Virus record (IMG/VR): IMGVR_UViG_3300030104_003796
Location: 2,936-66,935 of that record
DNA from: a virus
DNA length: 64,000 nt
Strand: one strand, 5' to 3'
A program made the translations under genes and the position numbers. Shown here piece after piece: positions 9,893 to 48,871 of this stretch; positions within the stretch are counted from its first letter, which is position 1, and each line of letters starts with the position of its first letter. The notes under the pieces are model-generated. The model saw nothing but the letters and a program-made list of their open reading frames with translations, ran no database searches and was not told where the DNA came from.

Positions 9893-12825
9893 TAGAACCG
9901 GTCCTTTTCTTTTCTCCAATTTGGGTTATCGCTACTGCGGCAGTAGCCATGATTGTTCTTCGTGGTGGTGTATCTCGGTTATTCTTTAACCTTGTAGGAA
10001 CATTCCAAGCCAGCAGACTTATTCACGATGCGGAAGCCGCATCCATAGCACTTCAAGGTCTTTTTGTTGATGCCCTTTCCGGTGTGTTAGAAAGCGCACA
10101 AGAATTAAATCAACAAATCGTTGAAATCGAACAAGCGGTTATCCCTATTGCGAGAGAAGTCGAGATTGCGACCATTGAATTTGAGAAATTCTTTGATACT
10201 ACCGTTATTACCACAAATCAATTAGACAAAATGGCCCGAAGCGTTAAGGCTATTGGTGCTGAATTTGGTTTCGTAGGTGATGAAGCATTAGCCGCAGGTG
10301 GTAGGGCGGCGCAATTGCAGGCTCTTTACGGTCCGGGTGTTGTCGAGCCACTAACAAGGGGTGGTTTGGCTCTCGGATTCGTTGGTGATATGGGCGGTGC
10401 AGATGCACAACAGGCTTTAATTTCTCTAATGCAACAGAATGCTCTTGTAACAGGAGATTTAACACAGGCTCAATTCTCTCTCTTATCCTCATACGAACAA
10501 AGAGATGTGGTTACTGCATCTGTAGCCGACACACTAAACAAACTAAACAGCGTTGAAGATAGGTCGGCGGCTCGTATGCCGGAAATCATTGAAGCCATGA
10601 ATCATTTTGGTGGTGTAGCAAGATTAGCCGGAGAAGACATAGGGTTTATGGCCGCTATGACGGCGACATTGATTGAGCGTGGTATTCGCGCGGAAACTGC
10701 GGGAACGGCTCTTAGATTTACTTACGCAAGAGTCGGTGGTGATATTAACGGCGCAGGTCAAGCGTTAAGAGATTTAGGCGTGGCGACACACGACGCAAAC
10801 GGCGAATTAAGACCAATGCAACAGGTTCTCAATGATTTAGCACCGGCATTTAGTCAAATGAACGACCAACAACAACAGGCTCTCGCTCAGACTATGGCTG
10901 GTAACAGACATTATGCTCGTTTGCTTCTTTTGATGCAAGACCTTGAAAGAGCAAATATGCTTTTCAATGAGGCTCAACAACAAACCGGAAAAGTAATGGA
11001 AGAAAACGGAGAGGCCGCAGGTTATCTTGCTGACCTATTCGCAGATACCGCTTTCCAAATAGAACAGACAGAAGCAAGGATTACAAACTTACAAGCCGCA
11101 ATCGGTGAGCGATTATTACCGGCGCAGTTAGCCGCTCTTGAAGCACAAGAGGATATGCTTATCGCCATAGAGGGTATCATAGGTGCATTTGAAGGAACGG
11201 CAATAGGTGGATTCTTAGAACAATTATACGAAGCAAGACTTGTGATAATGAATATCTATGCGCCGTTCTTCCAATTATACCTAAATATCTATGCCGCTTC
11301 AATTGCGCTATCCGGTTTCAGACAGGTTATGAGGGCTATTAACGGAGAGCAGATAGCGTTTATTATGGGGCAACAAACAAACAACGCAGTTACTCTCGCT
11401 CAGGAAGATTTGAGAGCAAAAAAATTAACGATAAATAATTTAAAGCAACAGTCTTCTGCGAAGTTAGCGCAAATAAACGCAAGAACAAGTGTGTTAAGAA
11501 ATAAATTATTAGATAATAGATTAAAGAAAAATGGTGTTGAAGTAAAACAAAAACAATTAGTCTTACTAATAGACCGACAAACCGCTTTAGTAGCATTGAA
11601 AAAAGAAAAAGGACAAAAATCAATGGTTAAATTAACTGCGATAAATAAAGAAATTAAAAATCTTGAAAAAGAAATAGAGAAGCAAATACTCAATACAAAG
11701 AATGCAGAAGCCGGAACAATGAAAAAAATAACCGCTTTAGAAAAAGAGCATTTAACATTGGTTGATTTGATAGCCCACCACACTAAAGATTTAGTTTTAT
11801 TACAAGAAAAACTCACCGCCGAAATAGAGCAAATGAATGCCGAGTTAAAAGAACAAGGCGCAATCTTAACCGGAAACCAACACGCTTTGACCGGTGCGGT
11901 ATCGGGCGCGATGGCCTTTAGTGGTGTGGCTATGATTATGTCTATGATATTGATGGTTGTTGGAGAAAACATAAATAAAATACTCCCTAAACAATTAGAA
12001 TTTGCGAACAACGCAGAAATTATGATGGTCGCTATGGTATTCTTAGCGGCTTCCTTTGCACCGATGATAGGTCAAATGATAACAACTATTGGTTTATTAA
12101 CCGTAAAAGCAGGTATGACTTTGTTTAACATTGTTAGAAATGTTTATCTCGCCGCTTCTAATTTTATGGTAGCGGTAAGTGAGGGTGGCCTTGTAACCTC
12201 GCTTAAGGCTTCTATTTTTGCTATGGGCGCAAAATTGAAGGCTATGGTGTCGGCGACGTGGGCGGCGGCGACGTTGGCCATTTCTAATATAGGGTTGGCG
12301 GCGAGTGAAGGTATAGCGGCGGGGGGTGCAACGGCATTAGCGGCGGCATTACAGGCTGTATTTTTAACAATAGTTGGTATTCTTGGTTTAACAGGTATAG
12401 GTCTTGCTCTTGTTGCGTTAGCGGCGGTGGCGATAGTGGCGGCAAAAAAATTATTGCCTTTTAATTTAGAGATGCAAGATACTATGACTAACATGGAAGA
12501 TTTCGCAGATATAGATGTGCCTACTTTCGATACAGGGTGGATGGATACTTATACTGATGGATTAAATCAAGCGAATGATGCACAAGAAAAATTCAACAAC
12601 AGTCGAGAAGAAATGTTCTTTGGATTCAAAGCAGGTAATGTGCAGGGCGCATTAGTAAAGCAGATTCGACAACAAGGCGTTGAAACATTCATAGCCAACA
12701 CAGAAGTTATACAGACTAATAATTTTAACGGTATGACTACAAAAGAGATGGCTAACATCGTTCTTGATGCGATAGAGAGTGAAGCGGGCGCAAGAGGCAT
12801 AAACCTCTCCGGTGTGAGTGTGTGA
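9889..12825 (+). CDS. Tail tape measure protein
   Basis: TP901-like core (GIRAETAGTALR, LRDLGVATHDANGELRPMQQVLNDL), coiled coils and hydrophobic segments. Confidence 0.9.
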   Translation: MIEPVLFFSPIWVIATAAVAMIVLRGGVSRLFFNLVGTFQASRLIHDAEAASIALQGLFVDALSGVLESAQELNQQIVEIEQAVIPIAREVEIATIEFEKFFDTTVITTNQLDKMARSVKAIGAEFGFVGDEALAAGGRAAQLQALYGPGVVEPLTRGGLALGFVGDMGGADAQQALISLMQQNALVTGDLTQAQFSLLSSYEQRDVVTASVADTLNKLNSVEDRSAARMPEIIEAMNHFGGVARLAGEDIGFMAAMTATLIERGIRAETAGTALRFTYARVGGDINGAGQALRDLGVATHDANGELRPMQQVLNDLAPAFSQMNDQQQQALAQTMAGNRHYARLLLLMQDLERANMLFNEAQQQTGKVMEENGEAAGYLADLFADTAFQIEQTEARITNLQAAIGERLLPAQLAALEAQEDMLIAIEGIIGAFEGTAIGGFLEQLYEARLVIMNIYAPFFQLYLNIYAASIALSGFRQVMRAINGEQIAFIMGQQTNNAVTLAQEDLRAKKLTINNLKQQSSAKLAQINARTSVLRNKLLDNRLKKNGVEVKQKQLVLLIDRQTALVALKKEKGQKSMVKLTAINKEIKNLEKEIEKQILNTKNAEAGTMKKITALEKEHLTLVDLIAHHTKDLVLLQEKLTAEIEQMNAELKEQGAILTGNQHALTGAVSGAMAFSGVAMIMSMILMVVGENINKILPKQLEFANNAEIMMVAMVFLAASFAPMIGQMITTIGLLTVKAGMTLFNIVRNVYLAASNFMVAVSEGGLVTSLKASIFAMGAKLKAMVSATWAAATLAISNIGLAASEGIAAGGATALAAALQAVFLTIVGILGLTGIGLALVALAAVAIVAAKKLLPFNLEMQDTMTNMEDFADIDVPTFDTGWMDTYTDGLNQANDAQEKFNNSREEMFFGFKAGNVQGALVKQIRQQGVETFIANTEVIQTNNFNGMTTKEMANIVLDAIESEAGARGINLSGVSV

Positions 12826-12829
12826 TGGT

Positions 12830-15800
12830 ATGGTAAGAACGGTCAATAGTAAATATGGTGCTTGGTTAGCAACCTATTACGATGACTTCGCAAGTGCGAG
12901 AGCCATAGCCAATGACGACAATTCACCTTCTGCTACCGCCTCATACGACAAAGATAAAACACACTATGGAAATCCGATGAACGGCGAGGCTATTCTCAAC
13001 CCCCGCTACCGTTGGTCTAACAACGAAATGAATAAAAATAATGGTTATAATACTGCTCTAATTGGTTCAAGCGATGAAACCAAAGAATTGTCTAATCGCG
13101 GAACATTTGAATGGTTATCTCTTGATACGACACGGCAGAAAGCCAGCGAATACGAAGGGAGAGCGCAATTACAATATCCCGATGGGAATGTCGGTAACAA
13201 ATGGCGATTCGATGCGAGCGGTAGTGATGCTTACCTTCTTTTTTCTAACGGGCATGATTCTTTAGGAAAATACATCGTTCCTCTTGGTGGGGATGACTCA
13301 ACCTTTGGTCGAGCCACTATGAATAACTACAATGTAGCAAACCACGATACAAATAAAAACGCGGGTGTGCATACTCAGACGGCAGGGTTTGTTCAGCGAG
13401 CGCATCTTGCTGGCGTTTGGATGGGAGAAACAACAGAATACGCACACAAAGATGGCGGCACAGTCGAAAGCCCACGAAACGTATTCCAGCCCGTTAAATC
13501 ACCATCGGGGCAACCATTTCTTGTAGTGCAATCATTTCACGCCAGCGATTCATCAAAGGCTTCAACCATTCCTTCTATTGCTTATGACGGTTCGTTGAAT
13601 AGCGTTGGTGATGACGATGTATTTACAGTTAGATTTGCGGTCCGAGCATATAGCGGGGCTACATCAAACGAAGGTAAATTAACACCTACTGCTACAGTTA
13701 AATTTGGATATACAGGTAGTGGTGCAGGAACAGACCTTGAAGATGGAATAAGTGGTGCGCCTAAAGTAGCATGGGAGATTGACCTTTCTTCTTACAACAC
13801 ACACCCGTTCAAATATGGTGATAGCACCACAGAAACAGACGAAGTAACGCATTGGATTGACCTTGATTTTGTCCTTGATTACACCAACAGTAAATTTAAG
13901 GTTTATCAAGATGGAACAGAAGTAACTTCAACAAACTCTCTCGGTGGTTCTTATTCATCCGGCTACGCTTTGACGAGCGCAACGGCGGCTGATATGTATG
14001 GTTGGGAAATGGAAGTCAAACCCGCATCATCACAAACAAATGTAAATTGTGTATTGATGCTTGACCGAGCCGCTATGTATAGACCGCTCACAGACCACCC
14101 CGACGGTAGGGAATTACCCCCTTTAGAACAAATGAAAATGATACAACCGGTAAATGGTTTTTCATCTTTGTCTGTAAAATTATCAGATGAACCCGCGCCG
14201 GAAGGTGGGGCGAATGTTGGAGTTAATACCGATGACTACGCACACCATTTAATATCTCTTTTTAATCGCTCGGCTATATCAGATATTTACCTATTATTAT
14301 TTACAAATCCCACAAGAGGATTTACAAACGAAACGCATACGATAGATAGACCAACATGGATGGGTGTTGTTGAAGATATGAAAATCCAACAAGAAACCAA
14401 AGATAGAAGAATCGAGTTAAAGGCAAGGGATATGACTTCTTTACTTGATAGACAAATCCCATTATGGGAAGTAGGACAAAAGGGATTGAATGAAGACGAA
14501 TCACAAACGCCTTATTGGTTATATGACGCACAAGGCATGAGAAGTATAATGAATCTCGGCGCAACCCCATTAAAAACATTAGATAATTCAGTAGGGTTTG
14601 ACGTTGATGACGATTATAAAGAATTGAAAAATCAAAGATTACAATTAAACTCGGCTCACCCTATCCAAATGTATAATAACGAAAACACAGATTACGGACC
14701 TAATGATATAGAAACTGAATATGAAGGTGCAGGTATTTTAGGATTCGGACAAGAATGGAGTAATGCAGTATCTCCGACTTCTATGACTAAAATACTTTTC
14801 AACGGAACAGTATCGTTTTCATCGGGAGATACATTTAAGATAACAGATTCCACAAATCATAATGGACCAACAATAGGTAATGCTACGGTTCAATCCTTTG
14901 GTTCGGGAACAGAAAACGGTAATTCATTTGTAACTATTGATACTCCAAATTATGTTTCTGAATCCCCTAAAATTTTATACGCCGGTCAAGGTAAATTTGT
15001 TAGAATAACAAGAACAATTCCGGGTTTCTTTACACATGATTATCAAGATGAAATAACTTCTTACCCCACAGCAAACGACCCTCTAAGTGAAAACTTAGTA
15101 ATAGCGTTTGACGCAGACCCACAATTGCTACCAAATGATACAATTTATATTTCTAATTATGATTTATCAACAAGCGGCACTAAAGCAAGCAGACAGATAA
15201 CACCACAAGCGTTGGCCGGTTTGCACAAAATAAAAAAGGTTACTAAAATTTGGAATTATTATTCGACATACTCAACCCAAGCATACATTTGGGTTGCTGA
15301 TACCTTTACAAAATATACAGATGTTGGGGCTGAATTTGGAACATATACAAGCAACACAGGATTAAAAAGCGGAGATGATAGAGGCTCTTTTTCAACGGAC
15401 AGGGGTATAACAAATACTATACCTACTGCACAAGATAAAAATTTAGACAATAAAGCGGTTCACGCTGTTTGGATGCGAGATTTACCTAAGTCTTTATGGT
15501 TTCAATATCATTTTGGGGATATACAAAAAGGCCCTACCGCTACCGCAAACTTAGGTGCTACTGCTTCATTCGGAACAGACGAAATACAAGTTAATTTCAC
15601 ATCAGACCAATTCAACGCCATACCGGATTCCGGCATAGGTGAGATAGACGACAAAGGTAGGTTAGAAAAAAATAGAATACGCGATAAATTTATCTATCGA
15701 GCAAAGGTAAATGATAGCGGCACTTATTGGTTGGTGGGTGTATCTTATTTATCTAAACCACACGCTACAACATATTCCGAAGTAGGGGTATCTTTAGCAA

Positions 15801-18800
15801 CACAAGTCCATATATGCAACATAAGTAATGATTACAAACACATTTGGTTGCTTTGGTCTGATATGAGAAACAATGGTAAGGCAGATGCAGACGGCGCATA
15901 TAGAAAAGAAGATTTTGGCCTTATTTATCCTACGAACGATAACTACGAAGTAAGTATGTTTTACACCGACCAAGATACTAACGCAGACGGAAAGCCCGAT
16001 AGATTTACGGAATTAAAATTAGGAGAAGAAATAGACCTTTGGAATATCAATTCAAATAATGACCCTTCAACAAACGGCGCATTTTCAAAGCCAGCAGATT
16101 ACGCAAACAAAGTAAGTATATCTTCTCTTAGCGATAATAGCGGTAAATTAAGAATTGCTACTTCTAATACCGGCTCAATAACTACTAATGATTATATTCA
16201 TCTAATTAACACCGGAAGCCACGATGGGTTACACAAGGTAACGAATGTATCTTCTAACACACATTTTGATGTTGATACTGATTTTATTTCCACAACAATA
16301 AATACCAAAGGTGGGTTTTATGCGCCAACAACGGGAAGCGACCAAGACTTATCACAGTATCAAGATTGGGAAGACAAAGGCGGCTCTTTCTTAACCATTG
16401 ATTGTTCTAAATTTTTCAACATGAATACTTTGGCTAATAGTGGTAAAACCGGACAATTTGCCGGTGGTAAAACAGACTTAGGGGATTTTATAGCGACCAT
16501 AAAAGGTTACCCAACACTTATAGATAATTATTGGGCGGAGATAACTTCAAACCCCGAAAATACAAATAGTCCTTACGCTTCTCACCGCAATAAAGACTTT
16601 TTAATAAACGAACCAAAAGTAATTAACAACGATATAGAGAAAGGAGATTTCTTCATAAAATTAGATAGCACACAAGGGTTTGATGAAAAAGGCGGATATG
16701 GTATTTTATTAGGCGTTAATAATGATTCCACGACCAACCAAACTACAACAAAAAGATACCTAAATTACAACCACTTATTAAATACAGAAGTTAGCGGAAC
16801 ATTAACTGCTAAATCTGCAAGCACTACAACATATACATTAACTGATTCTTCACAAACATTTCAAACAAAAGGTGTAAAGGCAGGTATGTTAATCGAAAAC
16901 ACTACTACCTCTTTAACAAATTATACACAAACTATATTAGGTGTAACATACACTATGAAAAGATTGTTTAGAATTAAATCTGTTGATAGCGAAACACAAT
17001 TAACAGTCCAATTGATGTATTACCTATCTTCTGAATTTGGCCCTGCTGGAACAAGCGCATTGGCCATAGGTCTTCACGATTTATCAAGCGTAAGAAACTT
17101 AACTGCGGGAGAACAGGCGTTATGGGGTAGCACAAATAACTATTCTATACCTATTCAATTATCCAACGTATCAACATTTGATGTGCCGGAAGATTATGCT
17201 TTGGATACTTCCGAGTTAGTAAATAAAGTAGCCGAAGCATATTTCAATTTAACCGAAGCCGACCATCATATAACAACATCTTTTTCAACATCTGCTTTTG
17301 ATACGATACAAATACATACGAGTTTATCACCGTTATTTTTGCTTAGATTGATGATGGATATTGACGGATTCGTGCGCTCACCTAACATGGGTTCTTTTTG
17401 GGATAGCGACAAATTCCGTTTGCTTTGGAATGCTGGTCTCATGCAGACATGGATGCCGCAAACGAGGTTACCTGTTGTGTTCGACATTAACAATGTGCCT
17501 ATTACCACAAACATGACTACATACAACGACAAGACAAGCAACGATTCATACGGTTCAATCGTTGATAGCAGGGGTAAAGCACTATGGGAAACAATAAGGC
17601 GTATAAAAGAAGGTTCGGGCGTTGGATATACTAATGGTTTAGCGACTACATTTTCTTATTTAGTCGGTAAAGACGGCAGAATAGAATACAGACCTAAATA
17701 CAATTCCGGCCACGACTTATCGAGAGATAACATACAAATAAATAGTCTTAAGACAAATATAGCAGGTCGAATATCTCATGTTAGATTGTATTATAGGAAC
17801 GGTCAATCGTTTGTTGATTTTCCCGAAGCGGCACTTACTGATACAACAAGATGGAAGATATTAGAATATCCCGAAGTGAACGGTGATTTAGAAGCCTTAT
17901 CATTAGCAAAGAAGGAATACAATTCATTGAAGGAATCGAGATTGTCTGTTAAGGCATCTCCTATGCGTGATACAAGCACAGACGACATAATGCTTACACA
18001 CGGTAGGTATGGCTACATAGCAGACCCATACAGGGCTATACAGGGCTACAATAACGCCATAGCCGGTGGTTCGTCATGGACTTCCTTTGCGGCTGGTGGT
18101 GCGCCCTTCACAGGTATGTCTAACGCCCTAAACGGCAATCTAAAGACTTCAACAGACATATACAACAGATACGGCAATTCTGCGTCTGCCGGTAGTAGTA
18201 GCACAATAAATTATGATGATAATTATTATTTCTATGGTGCTAACTCATTGGCTCATGCGGTGCAAATAGTCCATGTGCCTTCTAAGTGTCCTTTAGTTAG
18301 CGGCACGACAGGAGAGGAATTGAGAGTAGCGGTCCATCTTTCGGGCGGCACAACAATTGACGATGCACAATTCACAATCGGGCTTTACGATTACAGTTAT
18401 TCAACAAGCAGTAGCGCAAAAGGTGGCGGTGCGCCGACAATGGTTGCGAGTCTTGCTACTAACGGCTATGAGAAGGCTGATGCGGTCCAAAGCGGATTCT
18501 ATGAAATCAAAGTGCCGGACAGTTATGATGCAGACGGAATACTAAATGATGGTTCTATTGTTGTCTCATTCAACGCCGACTATTGCAGGGCTTTGTTGCG
18601 CCACAGATGCGGCGACCCAACCCACGCTAACATTCTAAAGAATGCTCACGATATTACAGGCATAACTTCGTTTGGTTCTCCATACAACACAAATAGCATA
18701 TTTCCTATTGGTATGAGAAAATTCACAGAAATGTCTTCATTTGCAGACGACAGAACGGAATGGTATGCACCAAGAGTCCATATCACTTATGATTATAATT

Positions 18801-19825
18801 ATGTTCCAGCAACCTTTGTAAAATATACGGATGCGGGTTTGGGGCTTAACAATGAAACAATGGTTATACGCCGCATAGATTGGTCGGTCAAAGGAAGAAA
18901 TATAGAAGAAGTTAATTTAGAATTAGAACGTGATGAATCATTATCAGCCGGTGGTATTACATCATATCTTTTCCCGACTTTCCCCGCTAATTCAAAAATA
19001 CCAAGAAACACTATGCCGGAAGCGTCTTCTTCCGGTCAAGACGGCGTGGTCGTTGTAAAGTCTATGCGAGAACCAATAGGTGAAATGGGCGATGATAACG
19101 ATGCGAACCCTACCGGTGGTGGGAATGCAGGAAGTGGTAATAGAGGCGCAGGAAACGGTGTCGTGTATTCACCAACAGTTAGCGTCAATCAATTTAACCC
19201 TAATTTCATTTCAAGAGTAAAGGGCCGTATGGCTATGGATGGGGATAAATTCGCACCTCAAGGTGAATTTGGTATCTTAGGTGGTGCAAGGCCAAGTGTA
19301 GCGGCATCCTCGATGCGTTCAATCGGCGGTTTAGAATACTTTATTCCAACAGAAGGTGCGGCAAGCAAAACGCCGGAAGGTATAAGTTTATCAGCCGGTA
19401 ATTTTTCTGTTGATACATCTTCAAGCGTGTTATCAGAAATAAAAGGAGTATTTACTGTTGCTTCGGATGTAATCACAGATGAGATAGGCTTACAAGTAAA
19501 ATTAAGTCATGGGGCATTAAGTAAATACAGTAAAACCGCTACTTTGTATGCCGAGATAAAATGTGTTGAAACAGATACTAACATTACAACAGCAATCAGT
19601 ATAAATTCTGGGATTGAAAATAAAACCTATTCAATCATACCAAGTGAAAGCCTGTCCGGTGCTTCGACAAAAGGCAATACATTAGAAATAAAATTGTATA
19701 GAAAGTATGGGGAAGGTGATGACGATTCAAATAGTGCAATTAGGATTAGTGAAGTTATGGTTAATCAAAGAAGGTCTGCTTTCCCATCTGCTAACCAATC
19801 AAAAGATTTTTCTCAATTCTCGTAA
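12830..19825 (+). CDS. Very large tail tip/baseplate-hub protein (~2330 aa)
   Basis: Follows the tape measure gene; S/T/G/N-rich beta composition; hub-like segments (WMGVVEDMKI...ELKARD; VGKDGRIEYRP). Confidence 0.7.
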   Translation: MVRTVNSKYGAWLATYYDDFASARAIANDDNSPSATASYDKDKTHYGNPMNGEAILNPRYRWSNNEMNKNNGYNTALIGSSDETKELSNRGTFEWLSLDTTRQKASEYEGRAQLQYPDGNVGNKWRFDASGSDAYLLFSNGHDSLGKYIVPLGGDDSTFGRATMNNYNVANHDTNKNAGVHTQTAGFVQRAHLAGVWMGETTEYAHKDGGTVESPRNVFQPVKSPSGQPFLVVQSFHASDSSKASTIPSIAYDGSLNSVGDDDVFTVRFAVRAYSGATSNEGKLTPTATVKFGYTGSGAGTDLEDGISGAPKVAWEIDLSSYNTHPFKYGDSTTETDEVTHWIDLDFVLDYTNSKFKVYQDGTEVTSTNSLGGSYSSGYALTSATAADMYGWEMEVKPASSQTNVNCVLMLDRAAMYRPLTDHPDGRELPPLEQMKMIQPVNGFSSLSVKLSDEPAPEGGANVGVNTDDYAHHLISLFNRSAISDIYLLLFTNPTRGFTNETHTIDRPTWMGVVEDMKIQQETKDRRIELKARDMTSLLDRQIPLWEVGQKGLNEDESQTPYWLYDAQGMRSIMNLGATPLKTLDNSVGFDVDDDYKELKNQRLQLNSAHPIQMYNNENTDYGPNDIETEYEGAGILGFGQEWSNAVSPTSMTKILFNGTVSFSSGDTFKITDSTNHNGPTIGNATVQSFGSGTENGNSFVTIDTPNYVSESPKILYAGQGKFVRITRTIPGFFTHDYQDEITSYPTANDPLSENLVIAFDADPQLLPNDTIYISNYDLSTSGTKASRQITPQALAGLHKIKKVTKIWNYYSTYSTQAYIWVADTFTKYTDVGAEFGTYTSNTGLKSGDDRGSFSTDRGITNTIPTAQDKNLDNKAVHAVWMRDLPKSLWFQYHFGDIQKGPTATANLGATASFGTDEIQVNFTSDQFNAIPDSGIGEIDDKGRLEKNRIRDKFIYRAKVNDSGTYWLVGVSYLSKPHATTYSEVGVSLATQVHICNISNDYKHIWLLWSDMRNNGKADADGAYRKEDFGLIYPTNDNYEVSMFYTDQDTNADGKPDRFTELKLGEEIDLWNINSNNDPSTNGAFSKPADYANKVSISSLSDNSGKLRIATSNTGSITTNDYIHLINTGSHDGLHKVTNVSSNTHFDVDTDFISTTINTKGGFYAPTTGSDQDLSQYQDWEDKGGSFLTIDCSKFFNMNTLANSGKTGQFAGGKTDLGDFIATIKGYPTLIDNYWAEITSNPENTNSPYASHRNKDFLINEPKVINNDIEKGDFFIKLDSTQGFDEKGGYGILLGVNNDSTTNQTTTKRYLNYNHLLNTEVSGTLTAKSASTTTYTLTDSSQTFQTKGVKAGMLIENTTTSLTNYTQTILGVTYTMKRLFRIKSVDSETQLTVQLMYYLSSEFGPAGTSALAIGLHDLSSVRNLTAGEQALWGSTNNYSIPIQLSNVSTFDVPEDYALDTSELVNKVAEAYFNLTEADHHITTSFSTSAFDTIQIHTSLSPLFLLRLMMDIDGFVRSPNMGSFWDSDKFRLLWNAGLMQTWMPQTRLPVVFDINNVPITTNMTTYNDKTSNDSYGSIVDSRGKALWETIRRIKEGSGVGYTNGLATTFSYLVGKDGRIEYRPKYNSGHDLSRDNIQINSLKTNIAGRISHVRLYYRNGQSFVDFPEAALTDTTRWKILEYPEVNGDLEALSLAKKEYNSLKESRLSVKASPMRDTSTDDIMLTHGRYGYIADPYRAIQGYNNAIAGGSSWTSFAAGGAPFTGMSNALNGNLKTSTDIYNRYGNSASAGSSSTINYDDNYYFYGANSLAHAVQIVHVPSKCPLVSGTTGEELRVAVHLSGGTTIDDAQFTIGLYDYSYSTSSSAKGGGAPTMVASLATNGYEKADAVQSGFYEIKVPDSYDADGILNDGSIVVSFNADYCRALLRHRCGDPTHANILKNAHDITGITSFGSPYNTNSIFPIGMRKFTEMSSFADDRTEWYAPRVHITYDYNYVPATFVKYTDAGLGLNNETMVIRRIDWSVKGRNIEEVNLELERDESLSAGGITSYLFPTFPANSKIPRNTMPEASSSGQDGVVVVKSMREPIGEMGDDNDANPTGGGNAGSGNRGAGNGVVYSPTVSVNQFNPNFISRVKGRMAMDGDKFAPQGEFGILGGARPSVAASSMRSIGGLEYFIPTEGAASKTPEGISLSAGNFSVDTSSSVLSEIKGVFTVASDVITDEIGLQVKLSHGALSKYSKTATLYAEIKCVETDTNITTAISINSGIENKTYSIIPSESLSGASTKGNTLEIKLYRKYGEGDDDSNSAIRISEVMVNQRRSAFPSANQSKDFSQFS

Positions 19826-43384: not shown

Positions 43385-43597
43385 TTACTTCCTATTTATT
43401 ATCCCATGATATACCAAACGAGCGTAATTCTCCATCCATGAAGACAGCACATCGCGCGCCTCGCCTTTTTTAAGGCCGAAATCCCTTTGAAGATAAGGTG
43501 CTGCGCCGTACATATTAGTGTCGCCGGATGCCCTCAAATCCTCAAGGTATTGGTAGTATTCTGTCCATTCTTTTTTGTATTTTTTATTTTTAGTCAT
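43385..43597 (-). CDS. Hypothetical protein (YLEDLRASGDTNMYGAAPYL family)
   Basis: AGGAG leader before MTKNK; motif seen in small phage proteins. Confidence 0.6.
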   Translation of the reverse strand: MTKNKKYKKEWTEYYQYLEDLRASGDTNMYGAAPYLQRDFGLKKGEARDVLSSWMENYARLVYHGIINRK

Positions 43598-43643
43598 TAT
43601 TTTTTCTCCTTTTGTGAATGTGATAATAAAAAAATAGTGTTTG

Positions 43644-43775
43644 AAAAAAAGAGGGCGGGGGATTTTACGCTTCCCCCGAAAGCGGAGTATCATTTATTCG
43701 TAGCCGCAACTCAAGCCCAAATTACCCGAAGGCAGGGTGGGCGAGTCTGCGATTGCTCACGATTGGCTGATTCTC
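43644..43775 (-). ncRNA. Candidate structured ncRNA: 91-nt rod plus 3' H-type pseudoknot plus U-tract
   Basis: Hand-folded nested helices capped by C(UUCG)G; pseudoknot CGCUU-U-CGGGGG-AAGCG-UAAAAU-CCCCCG; AAAAATATAA about 27 nt upstream; T7 tract downstream. Confidence 0.6.
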
Positions 43776-43845
43776 AAAGCATACCCCGTTTTTTATTGGG
43801 GTTATATTTTTACGACCTGTGAGATACACGGTCGTTTAATGAAGA

Positions 43846-44865
43846 TTATAGGTGTGCATCAACGAGTCTGCCCCAAGCCTTAGTCATCATCTTATCACCA
43901 ACACCAAAGACCGCGTTTTCTGCGGTTTTTTGTTTGATACTTCCTTCGGAACCAAAGACGGCGTTAGCCTTTTGGAATGAATGATGCGTTACGTGTTCGG
44001 TCAGCGTATTATACGCCGCCCACGCAGTATCAGCCATTCCGCCTGTGGTGTTCGTTGGTGCAGTTTCTAACTCAAGCAATTCGTCAAGTTTGCGGTTGCC
44101 CTGTGCAGATAGACCATAAATATTAGTCGTATCTTTTTTAGTGCGTTCCGCATCAGCCTTACCGAGATAACCTGTGTCGATATAGAATTCTATTCTATCC
44201 GCCATATCCATGTGGACCTCAAGCAAACCGTTGGCTTGCTCGGCCCATTTTTTATTTAGGGTGTTGGTCAATTTCAAAGCCCTGCTAAGGTGCTTGATTT
44301 TGTCGTGCATTCTTGACGAATGACGAATAACCAAATCAGATGGTTTGATGCCCATTTCCCTCATGTTATGAAGGACCGCGCTCGTCTGATTTCTGCAAAA
44401 CAGACGGTTAAGAGTCGGAAGGACTCTAAAGGCTTGTGAGCCATCATAGGCATTCGACAGATAGATTTTAGCGTTGGAGACGTCGTTATCACCAATGGTG
44501 ATATGTTCGGGCAGTGCTAACTGCGCAAAAATTCTCGCGCCGCCATCAGTCTGCCCGACTCTCTCCCACTCCGCTTGACCTGCGCCGACTAATCCATCGG
44601 CAACCGAAAACATTTCTGTTGGTTGGAGGTTGGTATAATTTTTACCAACCGCACCTAACGGTTGCCCTGTGTCGGACCGGAAATTTACGCTATACCTTTC
44701 GGGTAGCAATTCCCCTGTGTCTGGGTGTGGGATTCGCCGCTTCTCAACGGTGAAGTCCAAACCTGCGTTCTTCATTACTTCTTCATTTGTTCGGCCAACG
44801 GCTTCCTGCCCCATCAATAGATGAGCAGGAATCGTCTTACCGATTCTTTGTCTAAAATAATCCAA
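43846..44865 (-). CDS. DUF932-family phage/plasmid protein
   Basis: AGLDFTVEKR, RSDTGQPLGAVGKNY, NAYDGS, RLFCRNQ, IRHS, TAWAAYNTLTE; probable TTG start after GAGGTG. Confidence 0.85.
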   Translation of the reverse strand: MDYFRQRIGKTIPAHLLMGQEAVGRTNEEVMKNAGLDFTVEKRRIPHPDTGELLPERYSVNFRSDTGQPLGAVGKNYTNLQPTEMFSVADGLVGAGQAEWERVGQTDGGARIFAQLALPEHITIGDNDVSNAKIYLSNAYDGSQAFRVLPTLNRLFCRNQTSAVLHNMREMGIKPSDLVIRHSSRMHDKIKHLSRALKLTNTLNKKWAEQANGLLEVHMDMADRIEFYIDTGYLGKADAERTKKDTTNIYGLSAQGNRKLDELLELETAPTNTTGGMADTAWAAYNTLTEHVTHHSFQKANAVFGSEGSIKQKTAENAVFGVGDKMMTKAWGRLVDAHL

Positions 44866-44984
44866 ATTTTTCACCTCTTTTTTTTTCAAACACTCAACCG
44901 CTATCATCGCCCTTGACTTCAAAGGCTCAATAGGTTGGTAGGGAGATTTTTTAGTTCTCCCATAATATATACTAATAACTAATA

Positions 44985-45010
44985 GTATTTAAGGTTTTTT
45001 ATCGTGAGTT
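44985..45010 (-). promoter_or_regulatory. Repeated promoter, copy 4 (AACTCACGATAAAAAACCTTAAATAC)
   Basis: Same 26-bp motif, abutting a TTATGTAAC site. Confidence 0.8.
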
Positions 45011-45034
45011 ATTATGTAACATCTTTTTTTCCGC

Positions 45035-45075
45035 AAAAAAAATCACCGACCCGCTCCCCGAAGGGAACGAGTCGG
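45035..45075 (-). terminator. Hairpin plus oligo-T terminator
   Basis: CCGACUCGUUCCC-UUCG-GGGAGCGGGUCGG followed by a T8 tract on the - strand. Confidence 0.65.
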
Positions 45076-45117
45076 CTTACGTATTTCAGAATCTATTTTT
45101 TCAGTCGTTGTTTTTTT

Positions 45118-45312
45118 TCACTCAACGATTTCAAGAATGCTCGGATGCTTTGCGACTCTCCATACTTCGCCGCTTGCGCTACGGCCATTTATGCCTCTCG
45201 CCTCATGCGTCTTCACCTTGACTGATTTTTGGTTCACTTTGATAACTTCACCTACGGTCTTTTGACCATTGGCTCTCCCAAATCTGACCTTCATTCCAAT
45301 TTTCAAATCCAT
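45118..45312 (-). CDS. Small SH3/KOW-like protein
   Basis: LKIGMKVRF...GEVIKVNQKSVKV...WRV. Confidence 0.6.
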   Translation of the reverse strand: MDLKIGMKVRFGRANGQKTVGEVIKVNQKSVKVKTHEARGINGRSASGEVWRVAKHPSILEIVE

Positions 45313-45356
45313 TCTTTTTTCACCCCCTTTTTTTTTAACGGTTGATTTTTTCTGTT

Positions 45357-45635
45357 TCACTCAATGACTATGTATTCGCCCGATGCGACTTTAGCCCGAA
45401 CATCTTTGATGCTCATTTCGCCCAAAAATCTTAACAGGTATTTATTTGTCGTTGCGCTATACATATTCCAATATGGTTCAAACAAAGTTATTTGGTTTCC
45501 ACCTTTAGGCCCGATTTCGCCGTAATCTCTCACGGCTACTATGGACTCGTACGACTGAAAAATTTTCCGCGCACCCTCACTAATGATGTATTGGTTTTTT
45601 GCTATCGTTCTTACTCTTGATGTAATTCTATTCAT
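45357..45635 (-). CDS. Hypothetical protein
   Basis: FQSYESIVA...YSATTNKYL motif; follows promoter copy 5. Confidence 0.6.
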   Translation of the reverse strand: MNRITSRVRTIAKNQYIISEGARKIFQSYESIVAVRDYGEIGPKGGNQITLFEPYWNMYSATTNKYLLRFLGEMSIKDVRAKVASGEYIVIE

Positions 45636-45663
45636 AATCCTCAATATGAAGTATATAGTCATA

Positions 45664-45689
45664 GTATTTAACTTTTTTTATCGTGAGTT
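45664..45689 (-). promoter_or_regulatory. Repeated promoter, copy 5 (AACTCACGATAAAAAAAGTTAAATAC)
   Basis: Same 26-bp motif, abutting three tandem TTATGTAAC sites with 19-bp period. Confidence 0.8.
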
Positions 45690-45878
45690 ATTATGTAACT
45701 TCTTTTTTATTATGTAACTTCTTTTTTATTATGTAACTTACCTGTGCTACCAAGATAAAAATTATGTAACTTTATATTTTTATCGCAAAAAAAAATAGGG
45801 GGGAGATTTACTCAAACATCTCCTTCAATCTGCGCTCAAATCGCGCCCACATTTTTTCGGTTGATAATTTTTTAGTCA

Positions 45879-46403
45879 TTATTTTTTCTCCTTGCAGTTT
45901 TTACAGATGCCGACTTTCTCGGCGGCGTTCCACATCACGAAGTCGCGCACAGGTGCGCGGGCATTACATGATGAGCAGGAAAGATAGACGGCAATATCAA
46001 TGCCGTTTGTTGGTTGCATCGTGCGCGTGTAGTCGCGCATCTGCGCGGCAATTTTTGCCGCCTGTCTGAGTCGTGCGGCCTCTCTTTTCTCGGCCCTATT
46101 TTTATTGACCCACGCTATGCGCTCGTTGGTGTCGTCTTCTTTTGGTGGGGTGAATGACCTTGACTTCGGACATGATGGGCGGTGCTTGCGAGAAGGACAA
46201 CCACAGGCACGGAGTTTGACTTTACCGCGTCCGCCCATGTGCTGACCTTTTTTTCTCTTGATACCGTGTCGAGGATTTTCGGCGGGTAATTTTTTGCATG
46301 GCTCACACATGACGCGAGAGCGACCCTTGAGATTCTGTTCAAATTCTTTAGAGCATCGGCGGCAGGTGAAATATCTTATCTTTATCTTTTTATTCTGAGG
46401 CAT
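45879..46403 (-). CDS. Basic multi-zinc-finger protein
   Basis: CRRC..CEPC, CGC..H..C, CSSC..CKNC; AGGAG leader. Confidence 0.65.
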   Translation of the reverse strand: MPQNKKIKIRYFTCRRCSKEFEQNLKGRSRVMCEPCKKLPAENPRHGIKRKKGQHMGGRGKVKLRACGCPSRKHRPSCPKSRSFTPPKEDDTNERIAWVNKNRAEKREAARLRQAAKIAAQMRDYTRTMQPTNGIDIAVYLSCSSCNARAPVRDFVMWNAAEKVGICKNCKEKK

Positions 46404-46617
46404 TGTTTTTTCTCCTGTGTTGTTCGCGGGTGTGTGTGTGTCTGTCCATAATATACCATCTTTTTCATAGTATATAATACTATCTTAGTGCGATTCTCCT
46501 TTTATGTAACATTATTATGTAACTTTTTTTCTCTTTTTTTTACACAGAATCAAGATACGAATTATGTAACTTATCTGCTGTGCTGGTCCAAAAAAAAATA
46601 AGGTCAAAAAATTATTT

Positions 46618-47034
46618 TCAATCCTCACGCGGTCGCTCATGAGGCGGGAGAGAAAATTTACAGCGCCTAAATCTGCTTCGGCGAATGGTTTTGCTTCCGG
46701 CTTCGGTTTCCGGCTCTTGTGCTGGTTGGTTTCGGTGGGCTATTCGCTCTCGTAACTCGACGTTACTGATGCGGTAGGGCATCGGATTATCATTGACCGA
46801 ACATTTCCATTGGTATCTCCGCTCATCACAGAAGCAATCAGCGAGGGTGTATCTTGAGCCGCTTCGCGGGCATCGGTAGGGCTTGCGTATTTTTTCCCCG
46901 TTTTCATCCTCAACCATTGGGTTGAATTTTCGGTTGAACCTTCGGATTATTTCGGGGGTTATTTTTCCAGCATGAGGCCCCATTTTTTCAGCATCACCAC
47001 ATAACCTACACCAACGACTTCGGCACATAAACAA
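46618..47034 (-). CDS. Cys/Arg-rich hypothetical protein
   Basis: CRSRWCRLC and CPRS..CFC; start codon uncertain. Confidence 0.45.
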   Translation of the reverse strand: MFMCRSRWCRLCGDAEKMGPHAGKITPEIIRRFNRKFNPMVEDENGEKIRKPYRCPRSGSRYTLADCFCDERRYQWKCSVNDNPMPYRISNVELRERIAHRNQPAQEPETEAGSKTIRRSRFRRCKFSLPPHERPRED

Positions 47035-47918
47035 GCGTTATTTTTTTTATATTTAAGGTCGGCGATTTCCCATTCTCCTTTTATGTAACTCTTTTATGTA
47101 ACTTTAGTTTAATTCAAAAGTTTATGTAACTTTCTTTTGTGATTTAAAAAATTATGTAACCTTCTTTTTTTCTGCCCCCTTTTTTTATGTAACTAAATGT
47201 AACTATAATCGTAATTTATGTAACGTTTTTTTATGTAACTAATTTTATCCGCCTTATTATGTAACTTTTCTTATGTAACTTTTTTCTTATGTAACTTTTA
47301 TTATGTAACGCTACCTACACAAGCACACGCGCGGATTTTTTTTGTTACATAATATGGTTACATAATTTTTTGAGATACACAATATGGTTACATAATTTTT
47401 GATTGGTGTTACATAATATCAGATTGGAGTTACATAAGGTGTTACAATGAGTTACATAATGCCCGAAAAAAAAGTTACATAATACTATTGGGGTTTTAGG
47501 TCCTTTTTTTGGGGTTTTTGGCTATTATGTAACTAACGAAATGGCTGTCTCTCGATTAGGGGGTAAAACGATGATGGGTTTCATTAGTTACATAATCGAA
47601 ATCCGAAAATCGGCTCAATTGTGGTGAACAGGCTCGCAGTATAGCGTTTTCATGTGGTATTTAGGGCGACCTAAACTCCGAAAAACACCCCGAAATTATG
47701 TAACTTTATTTTGGCGCATTATGTAACTCTAAATCGAGATTGCTCAATCGTGCATACTATATACTATGACTTCCTCTCAGAAGCGGGCCGGACTCGCAAA
47801 ATATTATGTAACATTCTTGATTCCACTAAAAAATTATGTAACTTCGCTAAATCATAGAAATTATGTAACATATTATGTAACACGCCGGTTCTTAAGTGGA
47901 GGCTTGTTCGCTCATAAT

Positions 47919-48128
47919 ATGTCGGAAGACAGGGAGAAAACGAAGCAAGAACAACGAAAGCAATCGCTTGTTAATGCGCTAATCATCGTGAAGTTGATTG
48001 GCCCTAATATGCGAAAGACTCAACCGGAGTCATCATGGTCCACAGACCTACGAGATGACCCCGATATTGAGGCGGTAATCACGGCCCACATATCAGAAGA
48101 TGTGAACATGAATTGTGAGGTGTATTGA
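47919..48128 (+). CDS. Hypothetical protein (MSEDREK...), probably leaderless
   Basis: In-frame ATG about 22 nt after CTTAAGT; the upstream part of track ORF 47766 is repeat DNA. Confidence 0.55.
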   Translation: MSEDREKTKQEQRKQSLVNALIIVKLIGPNMRKTQPESSWSTDLRDDPDIEAVITAHISEDVNMNCEVY

Positions 48129-48506
48129 ATGACGTTCCGCATCACTACAAGGGGCGCGGATGCGTCAAAGGATGGTGAGAGATACCGAAAGGAGGTGGAT
48201 GCAAACGATACGAAGACGTCATCATGGCGGCTCGTATTGCGAGATGACGGCAAGCACTTCATGGAATCATGGGTTGAAACATATCATCACCACTCCGGCA
48301 AGTCAAGGACGAGTTATGTAACTATCAGATTATCAGATGAAGAAGTCGCAGACATGGGAGATGCAATCAACGGATTCAATATCCATCATCACCCATTACA
48401 TCAATTAACGGGTGAATACGAGATTCCAACCACGCACCTATATGCTGGCGATGAAATCACAGGCTCACACCAAACCAACGAAGACCTAAAGATTCAGAAT
48501 GACTGA
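48129..48506 (+). CDS. Hypothetical protein
   Basis: GAGGTG leader; followed by a GC hairpin. Confidence 0.65.
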   Translation: MTFRITTRGADASKDGERYRKEVDANDTKTSSWRLVLRDDGKHFMESWVETYHHHSGKSRTSYVTIRLSDEEVADMGDAINGFNIHHHPLHQLTGEYEIPTTHLYAGDEITGSHQTNEDLKIQND

Positions 48507-48519
48507 TTATGTAACTTAA

Positions 48520-48551
48520 TGGGGGGTAGGGCCGCTTCATTCCTGCCCCCC
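48520..48551 (+). terminator. GC-rich hairpin after ORF 48129-48506
   Basis: GGGGGGTAGG-N11-CCTGCCCCCC. Confidence 0.45.
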
Positions 48552-48871
48552 AACCAAGTTATGTAACTTTGTCCTTTTTTGTAACTCCGCTATTATGTAA
48601 CTTCGCTCTTTTTTAAGAAACCAATATTATGTAACATCAGAAACCTGCGAAACTGGCTCAAATTTCAAGGTTGAAAAATTATGTAACTAAGGGAGTATAT
48701 AAGCAACGGACCGAAAAATGGCCTCGCGTTGTGCAAAAAGTCCGTTCAGAAAAATTGCGATTATGTAACGACTCAAGGGGTATAAACGATGCACTGCGAG
48801 CCGGAAATTCGGAAACGGGGCTTATGTAACTAAACTGCCCGATTCATATACTACTATAGGAACGGCGGGCC

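Follow-up and report, generated by a model that had tools for sequence, protein, structure and literature searches.

A candidate RNA structure, conserved with the DUF932 gene, in the early gene block of a tailed marine phage

The DNA analyzed here (the window) comprises 64,000 of the 66,935 bases of IMG/VR virus record IMGVR_UViG_3300030104_003796, which is rated complete, and the subject of this study is a noncoding element on its minus strand, predicted to fold into a long bulged rod followed by a GC-rich hairpin and a run of seven uridines (U7). PHROG matches identify the virus as a tailed marine phage, with tail fibre and tape-measure genes on the plus strand at the left side of the window and terminase and portal genes at the right side. 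From about 47034 down to 19813, all open reading frames (ORFs) lie on the minus strand, and this leftward block encodes a DNA polymerase, a clamp loader, exonucleases, and many small ORFs of unknown function. The element lies within this early block, in the 250-nucleotide (nt) gap between a DUF932 gene and a 70-codon ORF, and it begins 34 nt past the DUF932 stop codon. An earlier reading of the letters alone (the original prediction) had placed it in the early region beside DUF932, and the gene map obtained with PHROG and Pfam bears this out. When 15 neighbouring proteins were compared with Pfam, DUF932 was the sole match.

The element was read on the minus strand, and its energies were calculated for the 141-nt stretch from 43780 to 43640. 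The minimum free energy (MFE) fold of this stretch (−48.2 kcal/mol) reproduces all of the helices listed in the original prediction, as a rod and a separate GC hairpin, with a single register alternative (CGCA/UGCG versus GACUC/GAGUU). Every string, pair, and coordinate in that prediction was present on the minus strand at the position given for it; its A-rich string corresponds to 43811 to 43802. Within the rod, the apex is made up of two helices, a UU bulge, a 3-by-3 internal loop, and a UUCG-capped tip. Both the element and its apex occur once in the window phage, and the element is also present as a single copy in a 64.7-kb relative. The coordinates of these features and of the surrounding genes and signals are collected in Table 1.

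Table 1. Features of the DUF932 unit and its 3' flank, in the order in which they would be transcribed (bp, base pairs; RBS, ribosome-binding site)
Feature	Position	Strand	Remarks
Promoter-like motif AACTCACGATAAAAAAnnTTAAATACTAT, heading the DUF932 unit	44982..45010	-	One of five copies; putative promoter
Folded 5' leader of DUF932	44866..44975	-	Fold z -2.0
DUF932 gene, 339 codons plus stop	43846..44865	-	Pfam PF06067, E 1.3e-32; PHROG 1221
Small hairpin 1 of the 3' untranslated region	43813..43834	-	Predicted fold; L009 has a different small hairpin here
A-rich linker and hairpin 2 (ACCCC/GGGGU, 10-nt A-rich loop)	43783..43812	-	Predicted to fold
Bulged rod, 91 nt, 31 bp in 5 helices	43685..43775	-	From GAG at 43775 to CUC at 43685
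Rod apex, sequence-invariant	43708..43748	-	38/41 positions the same in the window and L009
GC hairpin (S2, 6 bp, 11-nt loop)	43656..43684	-	Loop can pair with the 5' linker (S1)
S1, 5' strand	43684-43680	-	
L1	43679	-	
S2, 5' strand	43678-43673	-	
S1, 3' strand	43672-43668	-	
L3	43667-43662	-	
S2, 3' strand	43661-43656	-	
CCCUC spacer	43655-43651	-	Invariant
U7	43650-43644	-	
30-nt block after U7	43614..43643	-	Conserved in all 5 sequences; core TATC-N-CATTCAC kept in L009
RBS and 70-codon ORF (ATG 43597)	43385..43611	-	First downstream cargo gene; without its own AACTCACGATAAAAAAnnTTAAATACTAT motif

Relatives were collected as the DNA around DUF932 homologues in viral and metagenome contigs. 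The element was found directly after DUF932 in five of the 11 metagenome loci (L004, L005, L006, L007, and L009). Since L004 is identical to the window and L007 is the same as the viral contig L002, the comparison covers five distinct sequences in three forms, all from one narrow marine lineage and one of them divergent. Four other loci (L008, L012, L013, and L014) end before the site of the element and are uninformative, and two (L010 and L011), whose DUF932 proteins are 44 to 45% identical, gave no match to the covariance model of the element. When the model was built from the window and L005, it recovered the other three sequences at 118, 116, and 71 bits (E values of 4e-26 to 7e-15) and nothing else among the loci searched. 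In two loci obtained via a conserved 80-amino-acid neighbouring protein (L144 and L145), the best E value was 0.74 with the filters off.

The distant relative is L009, whose DUF932 protein is 52% identical to that of the window, whose DUF932 coding DNA is 65 to 71% identical, and whose neighbouring genes are in a rearranged order; the element still follows DUF932 there despite the rearrangement. Relative to the window, L009 is identical at 38 of 41 positions of the apex and at just 9 of 21 and 2 of 7 positions of the basal segments. Over the 37 pairs counted, 96.2% of the cells nevertheless pair, compared with 34 to 47% when the partners are slid by one to three columns, and six pairs have changed on both sides; values this high were obtained in only 1 of 500 column shuffles. 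Five of the compensatory pairs lie in the basal and middle helices of the rod and one in S2, and all six come from L009. The 31 pairs of the rod are preserved across the five sequences. RNAalifold, used on its own, arrives at the same rod, and the MFE fold of L009 by itself yields the same basal helix. One helix of 3 to 4 bp is absent from L009. In L002 and L006, each arm of the rod carries an insertion (11 and 14 nt), and the two inserted arms pair with each other, such that the rod is about 10 pairs longer (−61 kcal/mol; z = −4.2), and the three differences between L002 and L006 within the insertion fall in loops or improve the pairing. Given that the insertions are paired and that the basal helices have been rewritten and still pair, the stalk can vary in length and sequence provided that it pairs, and the apex is fixed. 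Taken together, these comparisons show the element to be an evolutionarily conserved folded RNA. They bear out the claim of the original prediction that the structure is real, and the covariation that it had proposed to look for among homologues was found, with all of the double changes residing in one divergent sequence.

This conclusion draws on conservation, by which the element exceeds chance, rather than on folding energy, by which it does not clearly do so. Its fold has a z score of −3.08 relative to shuffled sequences (1 of 200 shuffles was as good). When the minus strand was scanned from 19001 to 48500 in 140-nt segments, however, 38 of 839 segments had z scores of −3 or lower, and the segment containing the element had a z score of −2.6 and the ninth-lowest MFE. 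Energy does not settle the strand either, since the opposite strand folds as well (z = −2.63) and has an equal or lower MFE in five of five homologues. The original prediction had argued that the G-U pairs and the UUCG loop favour the minus strand; as stated, this argument is weak, because the fold of the window contains only two G-U pairs and UUCG is replaced by UUAG in L009. A related argument can be drawn from the comparison. One G-U pair of the apical stem is kept in all five sequences, two more occur in single sequences (and are G-C in the others), the insertion of L002 adds further G-U pairing, and the counted pairs contain zero A·C cells. Since G-U pairs occur without A·C cells and the surrounding genes run in the same direction, these data favour an RNA read from the minus strand.

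The equal folding of the two strands is also what a DNA-level hairpin or cruciform would predict, whether as a replication, priming, or recombination signal or as the conserved junction of a mosaic module, and the gene content changes right after the 30-nt block that follows U7, as at a mosaic boundary. The G-U pairs just described, from the one kept in five of five sequences to those in single sequences and in the L002 insertion, have no A·C counterpart and fit a minus-strand RNA instead. In addition, the iteron-like array that would be expected at an origin sits elsewhere (45020 to 48830), and a base that has diverged while still pairing, beside an invariant apex, argues against the simple recent recombination of one tract. 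We consider a DNA-level signal to be very improbable.

Two other candidates were tried and rejected. The plus strand carries a promoter-like site at 43664 to 43693 (9/12) and a terminator-like hairpin at 43783 to 43802, and a similar −35/−10 pair is present in the close relatives. This site is not kept in L009, however, where none was seen by eye, the promoter scan returned about as many promoter-like sites as shuffled sequences (6 versus 4.3 ± 1.8), and the G-U pattern favours the minus strand; a plus-strand RNA was rejected on these grounds. Coding was rejected because the 11- and 14-nt insertions of L002 and L006 are not multiples of three and because the rod is crossed by a single ORF (35 codons, GTG start), which is not conserved.

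The element also does not resemble known RNAs. Rfam 15 gave no matches at the gathering score in the whole window or in six related loci, and in E-value mode the best matches scored 20 bits against a threshold of 45 (E values of 0.19 to 0.27). ARAGORN found no tRNA or transfer-messenger RNA in the window, L002, L005, L006, or L009. The original prediction, which had matched the element to no tRNA, hammerhead, twister, or HDV pattern, is upheld by the Rfam check, where nothing reached the gathering score and the best E value was 0.19, and by ARAGORN. When GenBank phages were searched with blastn in a distant mode, 178 records were returned, none of which covers 80% of the query, so that none contains the element; the best 20 of the 178 cover 10 to 15% each, in the A/T-rich RBS end. 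An exact 30-nt hairpin pattern had no match in viral contigs, and an exact 28-nt apex pattern matched only the contig of L002. A degenerate apex pattern matched nine viral stretches and at least 120 genome stretches (one genome per prokaryotic species), and among the 129 matches listed, one has flanking rod sequence (L022, on the same contig as L002). As judged by these searches, the element belongs to no described RNA family.

At the 3' side of the rod, the GC hairpin has an unusually large loop (11 nt in the window and 8 to 9 nt in the relatives) whose sequence is complementary to that of the linker immediately 5' of its stem. The H-type pseudoknot that the original prediction had built on this complementarity is uncertain, since S1 is 5 bp long in two of the five sequences but 3 bp long in the other three. 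In the window, a 5-bp S1, a 1-nt L1, a 6-bp S2, and a 6-nt L3 can form (P = 0.016 relative to shuffled loops). In L009, where both stems differ in sequence, S1 has 5 bp, all of them G-C, L1 has 4 nt, S2 has 6 bp, and L3 has 4 nt (P = 0.015). In L005, L006, and L002, S1 consists of just a 3-bp CGC/GCG core (P values of 0.33 to 0.37 by run length and 0.04 to 0.09 by duplex energy). The loop lengths are sterically plausible in five of five sequences, and the third loop is A-rich throughout. S2 shows one double change, and S1 shows one exchange of U-A for C-G between the window and L009 (by eye); its three core pairs never vary. These observations make an H-type pseudoknot at the GC hairpin possible but fall short of establishing it.

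The same hairpin had been proposed to be a terminator, and this claim, too, fared unevenly. S2, which is 6 bp long in the window and L009 and 7 bp long in L005, L006, and L002, is G+C rich and has the five or more pairs taken as the criterion for a terminator stem, and U7 is present downstream. The loop and spacer are noncanonical, however: a terminator scanner that allows loops of ≤8 nt and at most 2 nt between the stem and the U-run made no minus-strand call at the GC hairpin, whose loop has 11 nt and whose U7 starts 5 nt past the stem. In L009, an alternative register puts the stem beside the U-run. Two other early units have similar ends, in which a hairpin is separated from a U-run by a few C-rich bases (45815 to 45790 and 45075 to 45030); the first of these has a 6-bp stem, a 10-nt loop that holds the stop codon, a CCCCUA spacer, and a run of nine uridines. 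Since other early units end in this way, the design of hairpin, spacer, and U-run may work in the host. The GC hairpin and U7 are best treated as terminator-like and probably leaky.

We also looked at where transcription of the element might start. The ~29-nt motif AACTCACGATAAAAAAnnTTAAATACTAT is present in five minus-strand copies (45687, 45008, 43226, 38871, and 32128) that lie shortly upstream of early or middle genes; it has no obvious sigma-70 consensus and could be a promoter or activator site specific to the phage. DUF932 has one copy upstream (~45008), with none between DUF932 and the rod. Between the DUF932 stop codon (43846) and the start of the rod (43775), the promoter scan found no minus-strand site, and the best sigma-70-like match upstream of the rod scored 7/12 by eye, with no −35 element above 3/6, although the host's promoter type may differ. 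The A-rich string that the original prediction had taken for a promoter is conserved in L009 as part of the linker and hairpin 2, but with a −35 element of at best 3/6, it is not persuasive as one.

Six metatranscriptome runs from two studies contain part of the region, and four of these were examined as assembled contigs. In run X3, record 10 is an 895-nt contig with a rod of the long type that spans 43680 to 44517, and in run X5, a 647-nt contig (record 13) covers 43684 to 43834 and 43966 to 44328. In each of these contigs, the DUF932 coding sequence is continuous with the whole rod, and the contig stops just before the GC hairpin, about 30 to 35 nt before U7; these stops speak neither for nor against termination at the U-tract. 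The 5' limits of the contigs in X2, X3, and X5 fall at 44951 to 44963, slightly downstream of the 45008 motif. No contig in the four runs extends over 43605 to 43679, and the runs of the same strain (X1 and X2) contain parts of the DUF932 coding sequence only; gaps of this kind carry no evidential weight. The contigs fit a transcript that runs from the 45008 motif to the U-run and is cut short at each end, as in assemblies, which is a weak hint. Together with the lack of a promoter site or motif before the rod, their continuity with the DUF932 coding sequence leaves the predicted discrete ~130-nt RNA with its own promoter unsupported.

A stable, trans-acting small RNA of about 130 to 170 nt could still arise from a weak promoter of its own or from cleavage of the DUF932 3' untranslated region within the A/U-rich linker, by RNase E for instance. 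In such an RNA, the invariant apex would serve to bind a factor of the host or the phage. Broadly, this is what the original prediction envisaged; the decoy, anti-defence, antitoxin-mimic, and nuclease-resistance roles that it had put forward are guesses. An apex that is invariant down to its unpaired bases, on a stalk that varies, is the pattern expected of a displayed recognition module. The A-rich linker and hairpin 2 are retained in L009 (with a 4-bp stem), the 3' side carries a hairpin and U-run, and the absence of any family match would make this RNA a new one. On the other hand, neither a minus-strand promoter-like site nor a copy of AACTCACGATAAAAAAnnTTAAATACTAT lies directly upstream, and the contigs run on from the coding sequence at one depth figure, with no separate high-depth rod contig in the four runs. 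The latter point weighs weakly, since small RNAs are usually lost in such libraries. A search for trans targets, by complementarity of the element to the rest of the window, gave nothing significant (best E value, 0.36), and the element is present as a single copy. We regard a trans-acting RNA as unlikely, if still a serious contender.

Downstream of U7, the conserved 30-nt block contains no sigma-70 −35 element by eye, and past this block the gene content differs between relatives. The window has the 70-codon ORF, whose homologue in L002 is located ~700 nt farther downstream and is preceded by a motif copy of its own, and L005 and L006 have other small ORFs. In L002 (3858 to 4000) and L009 (3752 to 3885), the 30-nt block is directly followed by a second conserved structured element of ~135 nt and then by two small ORFs. 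The second element, which is 84% identical between the two and absent from the window, L005, and L006, has a consensus fold of −43.8 kcal/mol that includes one compensatory pair, and it matched no Rfam family or tRNA. In these alignments, the rod-and-hairpin element marks the exact border between the conserved DUF932 unit and the variable cargo genes. The next motif copy is ~420, 680, and 500 nt from the element in the window, L002, and L006, respectively, and the one or two small ORFs in this interval lack the motif; these downstream ORFs probably depend on read-through.

Such motif-less ORFs are what might be expected beyond a regulated gate of the attenuator or processive-antitermination type, in which a protein or ligand bound at the apex, or the pseudoknot, would set passage beyond the hairpin and U7 into the variable small genes. 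A suboptimal terminator-like hairpin would suit a leaky, adjustable stop, and in the window, pairing is possible between the CCCUC-U7 tail and the Shine-Dalgarno region of the gene that follows. Moreover, riboswitches and the nut and put sites are laid out likewise, as structured RNAs of specific sequence that immediately precede a terminator. However, no conserved antiterminator pairing was found, and the hairpin of L009 changes while its apex stays the same, such that the two do not covary as partners. Nor did any riboswitch model match: preQ1-II, whose threshold is 47 bits, gave 15.7 (E = 4.5), and the A/U-rich tail and the Shine-Dalgarno sequence account for its alignment. Finally, the downstream genes differ among the relatives and offer no common regulated function. 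A gate of this kind seems decidedly unlikely.

The rod itself, with 31 pairs separated by bulges and internal loops, is of the size expected of an RNase III substrate (at least about two turns of double-stranded RNA). An irregular 31-bp rod between genes of the early block, free to vary in length, might therefore be a host RNase III-type processing site in the early transcript, whose cleavage would separate the messages and leave a protective 3' hairpin. Yet the sequence of the apex is conserved more strictly than a double-strand-specific nuclease requires, and the RNA-library contigs pass through the whole rod with no sign of cleavage. We judge this explanation to be highly unlikely.

The gene to which the element is linked encodes a protein of an uncharacterized family that is very large, with 10,893 cluster representatives at E values of ≤0.001. 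DUF932 proteins are typical of the early or entry regions of phages and plasmids. The start codon of the gene is probably the TTG at 44865, based on the RBS and on homologues of 339 amino acids, although the frame is open from 44922. The leader opens with a hairpin (GGGAGA/UCUCCC stem, 9-nt A-rich loop) that is followed by a second stem-loop, and scan segments around it (44796 to 45075) have z scores of −5.3 to −5.9, the strongest of the early region; the leader is kept in the four close relatives and differs in L009. In the protein family, G, C, N, and H positions are invariant and an HDG motif is nearly so, and the HDG motif, a C-x-N motif, and a histidine together suggest a metal or active site. 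The AlphaFold2 model is confident (predicted local distance difference test score, 86.7). Comparison with the PDB by sequence gave a best E value of only 0.22, and Foldseek matched the model to no solved fold there (best E value, 0.019 at a template modelling score of 0.14); the best hit in a wide VIA-align search had a Z score of 5.8, under the tool's noise guide. A hint of RNA binding was sought by family, sequence, and structure comparison, and none was found; the titles and abstract openings of the DUF932 literature mention no link to RNA.

Two further observations concern other parts of the window. The 9-nt word GTTACATAA occurs in 42 copies at 45020 to 48830 (34 on the minus strand and 8 on the plus strand), most densely at 47080 to 47740; these copies fill a divergent intergenic region, precede several early genes, and resemble an operator or iteron array. 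A 2,335-codon ORF on the plus strand (12818 to 19825), directly after the tape-measure gene, had no PHROG match at an E value of ≤1e-5.

The reading that we tentatively prefer, as plausible rather than probable, is that the element serves the DUF932 early transcript as a structured module for its 3' end and boundary, the apex of which is sequence specific. We favour it because of the element's position, the layout of the motifs, the RNA-library contigs, the linkage with DUF932, the selected structure, and the noncoding nature of the sequence. The fold, its conservation, where it lies, and its continuity with the coding sequence in the RNA-library contigs are shown, whereas termination, stabilization, and the binding of a partner are inferred. 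The DUF932 unit would comprise the motif near 45008, the folded leader, DUF932, two small hairpins, the 91-nt rod, the GC hairpin, and U7, and RNA polymerase would transcribe the rod as part of the DUF932 mRNA. The GC hairpin and U-run would then halt part of transcription, which would keep the conserved DUF932 unit apart from the variable small genes. The rod and hairpin, possibly locked by the loop-to-linker pseudoknot, would block 3'-to-5' exonucleases, and this barrier would stabilize the DUF932 message or a 3' fragment of it. The invariant apex would be recognized by a specific partner, most likely a protein, with the variable-length stalk merely displaying it.

Several points weigh against a 3'-end module. 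The 5-nt spacer and the 8- to 11-nt loop make efficient intrinsic termination doubtful, and the motif-less ORFs downstream need substantial read-through or some other provision. The contigs give neither the ends, the strand, nor the level of a transcript, and RNA libraries can contain DNA. The covariation amounts to one evolutionary comparison, with L009, in an alignment that was fitted to the model. Above all, a simple stabilizer or terminator needs no apex that is identical at 38 of 41 positions beside a protein that is 52% identical. Since a 3'-end module leaves this strict conservation unexplained, both the trans-acting RNA and the read-through gate stay alive as rivals.

A bolder proposal combines several of these ideas. 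The rod, pseudoknot, and U-tail would together form a stable RNA of an undescribed class, derived from the DUF932 transcript or from a weak promoter, whose stalk-borne apex captures a specific protein. The RNA might act as a partner of the DUF932 protein or as an early decoy for a host factor, with the pseudoknot guarding its 3' end. We consider this combination quite doubtful.

At present, the element stands as one more narrowly distributed candidate RNA motif, represented by five sequences of which one is divergent. Nevertheless, a folded RNA that travels with DUF932, and whose apex is better conserved than the gene, would provide a first experimental handle on the DUF932 module. The element also pinpoints the switch from a conserved early unit to variable cargo, which should help when genomes of uncultured marine phages are annotated. 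A pseudoknot in the hairpin loop, if real, would represent a compact way to modify the 3' end of a transcript.

Among known systems, intrinsic terminators with structured 3' untranslated regions, including those that give rise to small RNAs in enterobacteria, are one class for comparison. Like them, the element lies at the 3' end of a unit, its GC-rich hairpin is followed by a U-run, and its upstream stem-loops could block exonucleases. In contrast to them, it has an 8- to 11-nt loop that is complementary to the 5' linker, an invariant 5-nt CCCUC before U7, and, ahead of the hairpin, a rod of 91 to 118 nt with an invariant apex. In the early region of phage T7, RNase III processing hairpins lie between genes and have a role in protecting 3' ends. 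The element resembles them as an irregular, bulged hairpin between genes of an early transcript; it differs in its longer rod, its sequence-invariant apex, and its single copy per genome, and its cleavage is a proposal only.

The nut (boxB) sites of lambda and the put sites of HK022 are cis-acting antitermination RNAs, put consisting of two short stem-loops near the promoter. Both they and the element are sequence-specific folded RNAs of an early transcript, and the element likewise lies just before a terminator-like signal. It bears no sequence or structural resemblance to them, however, it occurs in one copy rather than as a left and right pair, and no N-like protein was identified. Pseudoknotted aptamers of the preQ1-II (RF01054) and SAM-II type share with the possible pseudoknot of the GC hairpin two short GC stems, a first loop of 1 to 4 nt, an A-rich third loop, and an adjoining expression signal, whereas the element scores 15.7 bits against the 47 of preQ1-II and has an S1 of only 3 bp in three of five sequences. 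The combination of a rod, a loop-to-linker hairpin, and a spaced U-run is unusual in its details, but it is of a familiar kind, that of the structured intergenic RNAs of phage early regions.

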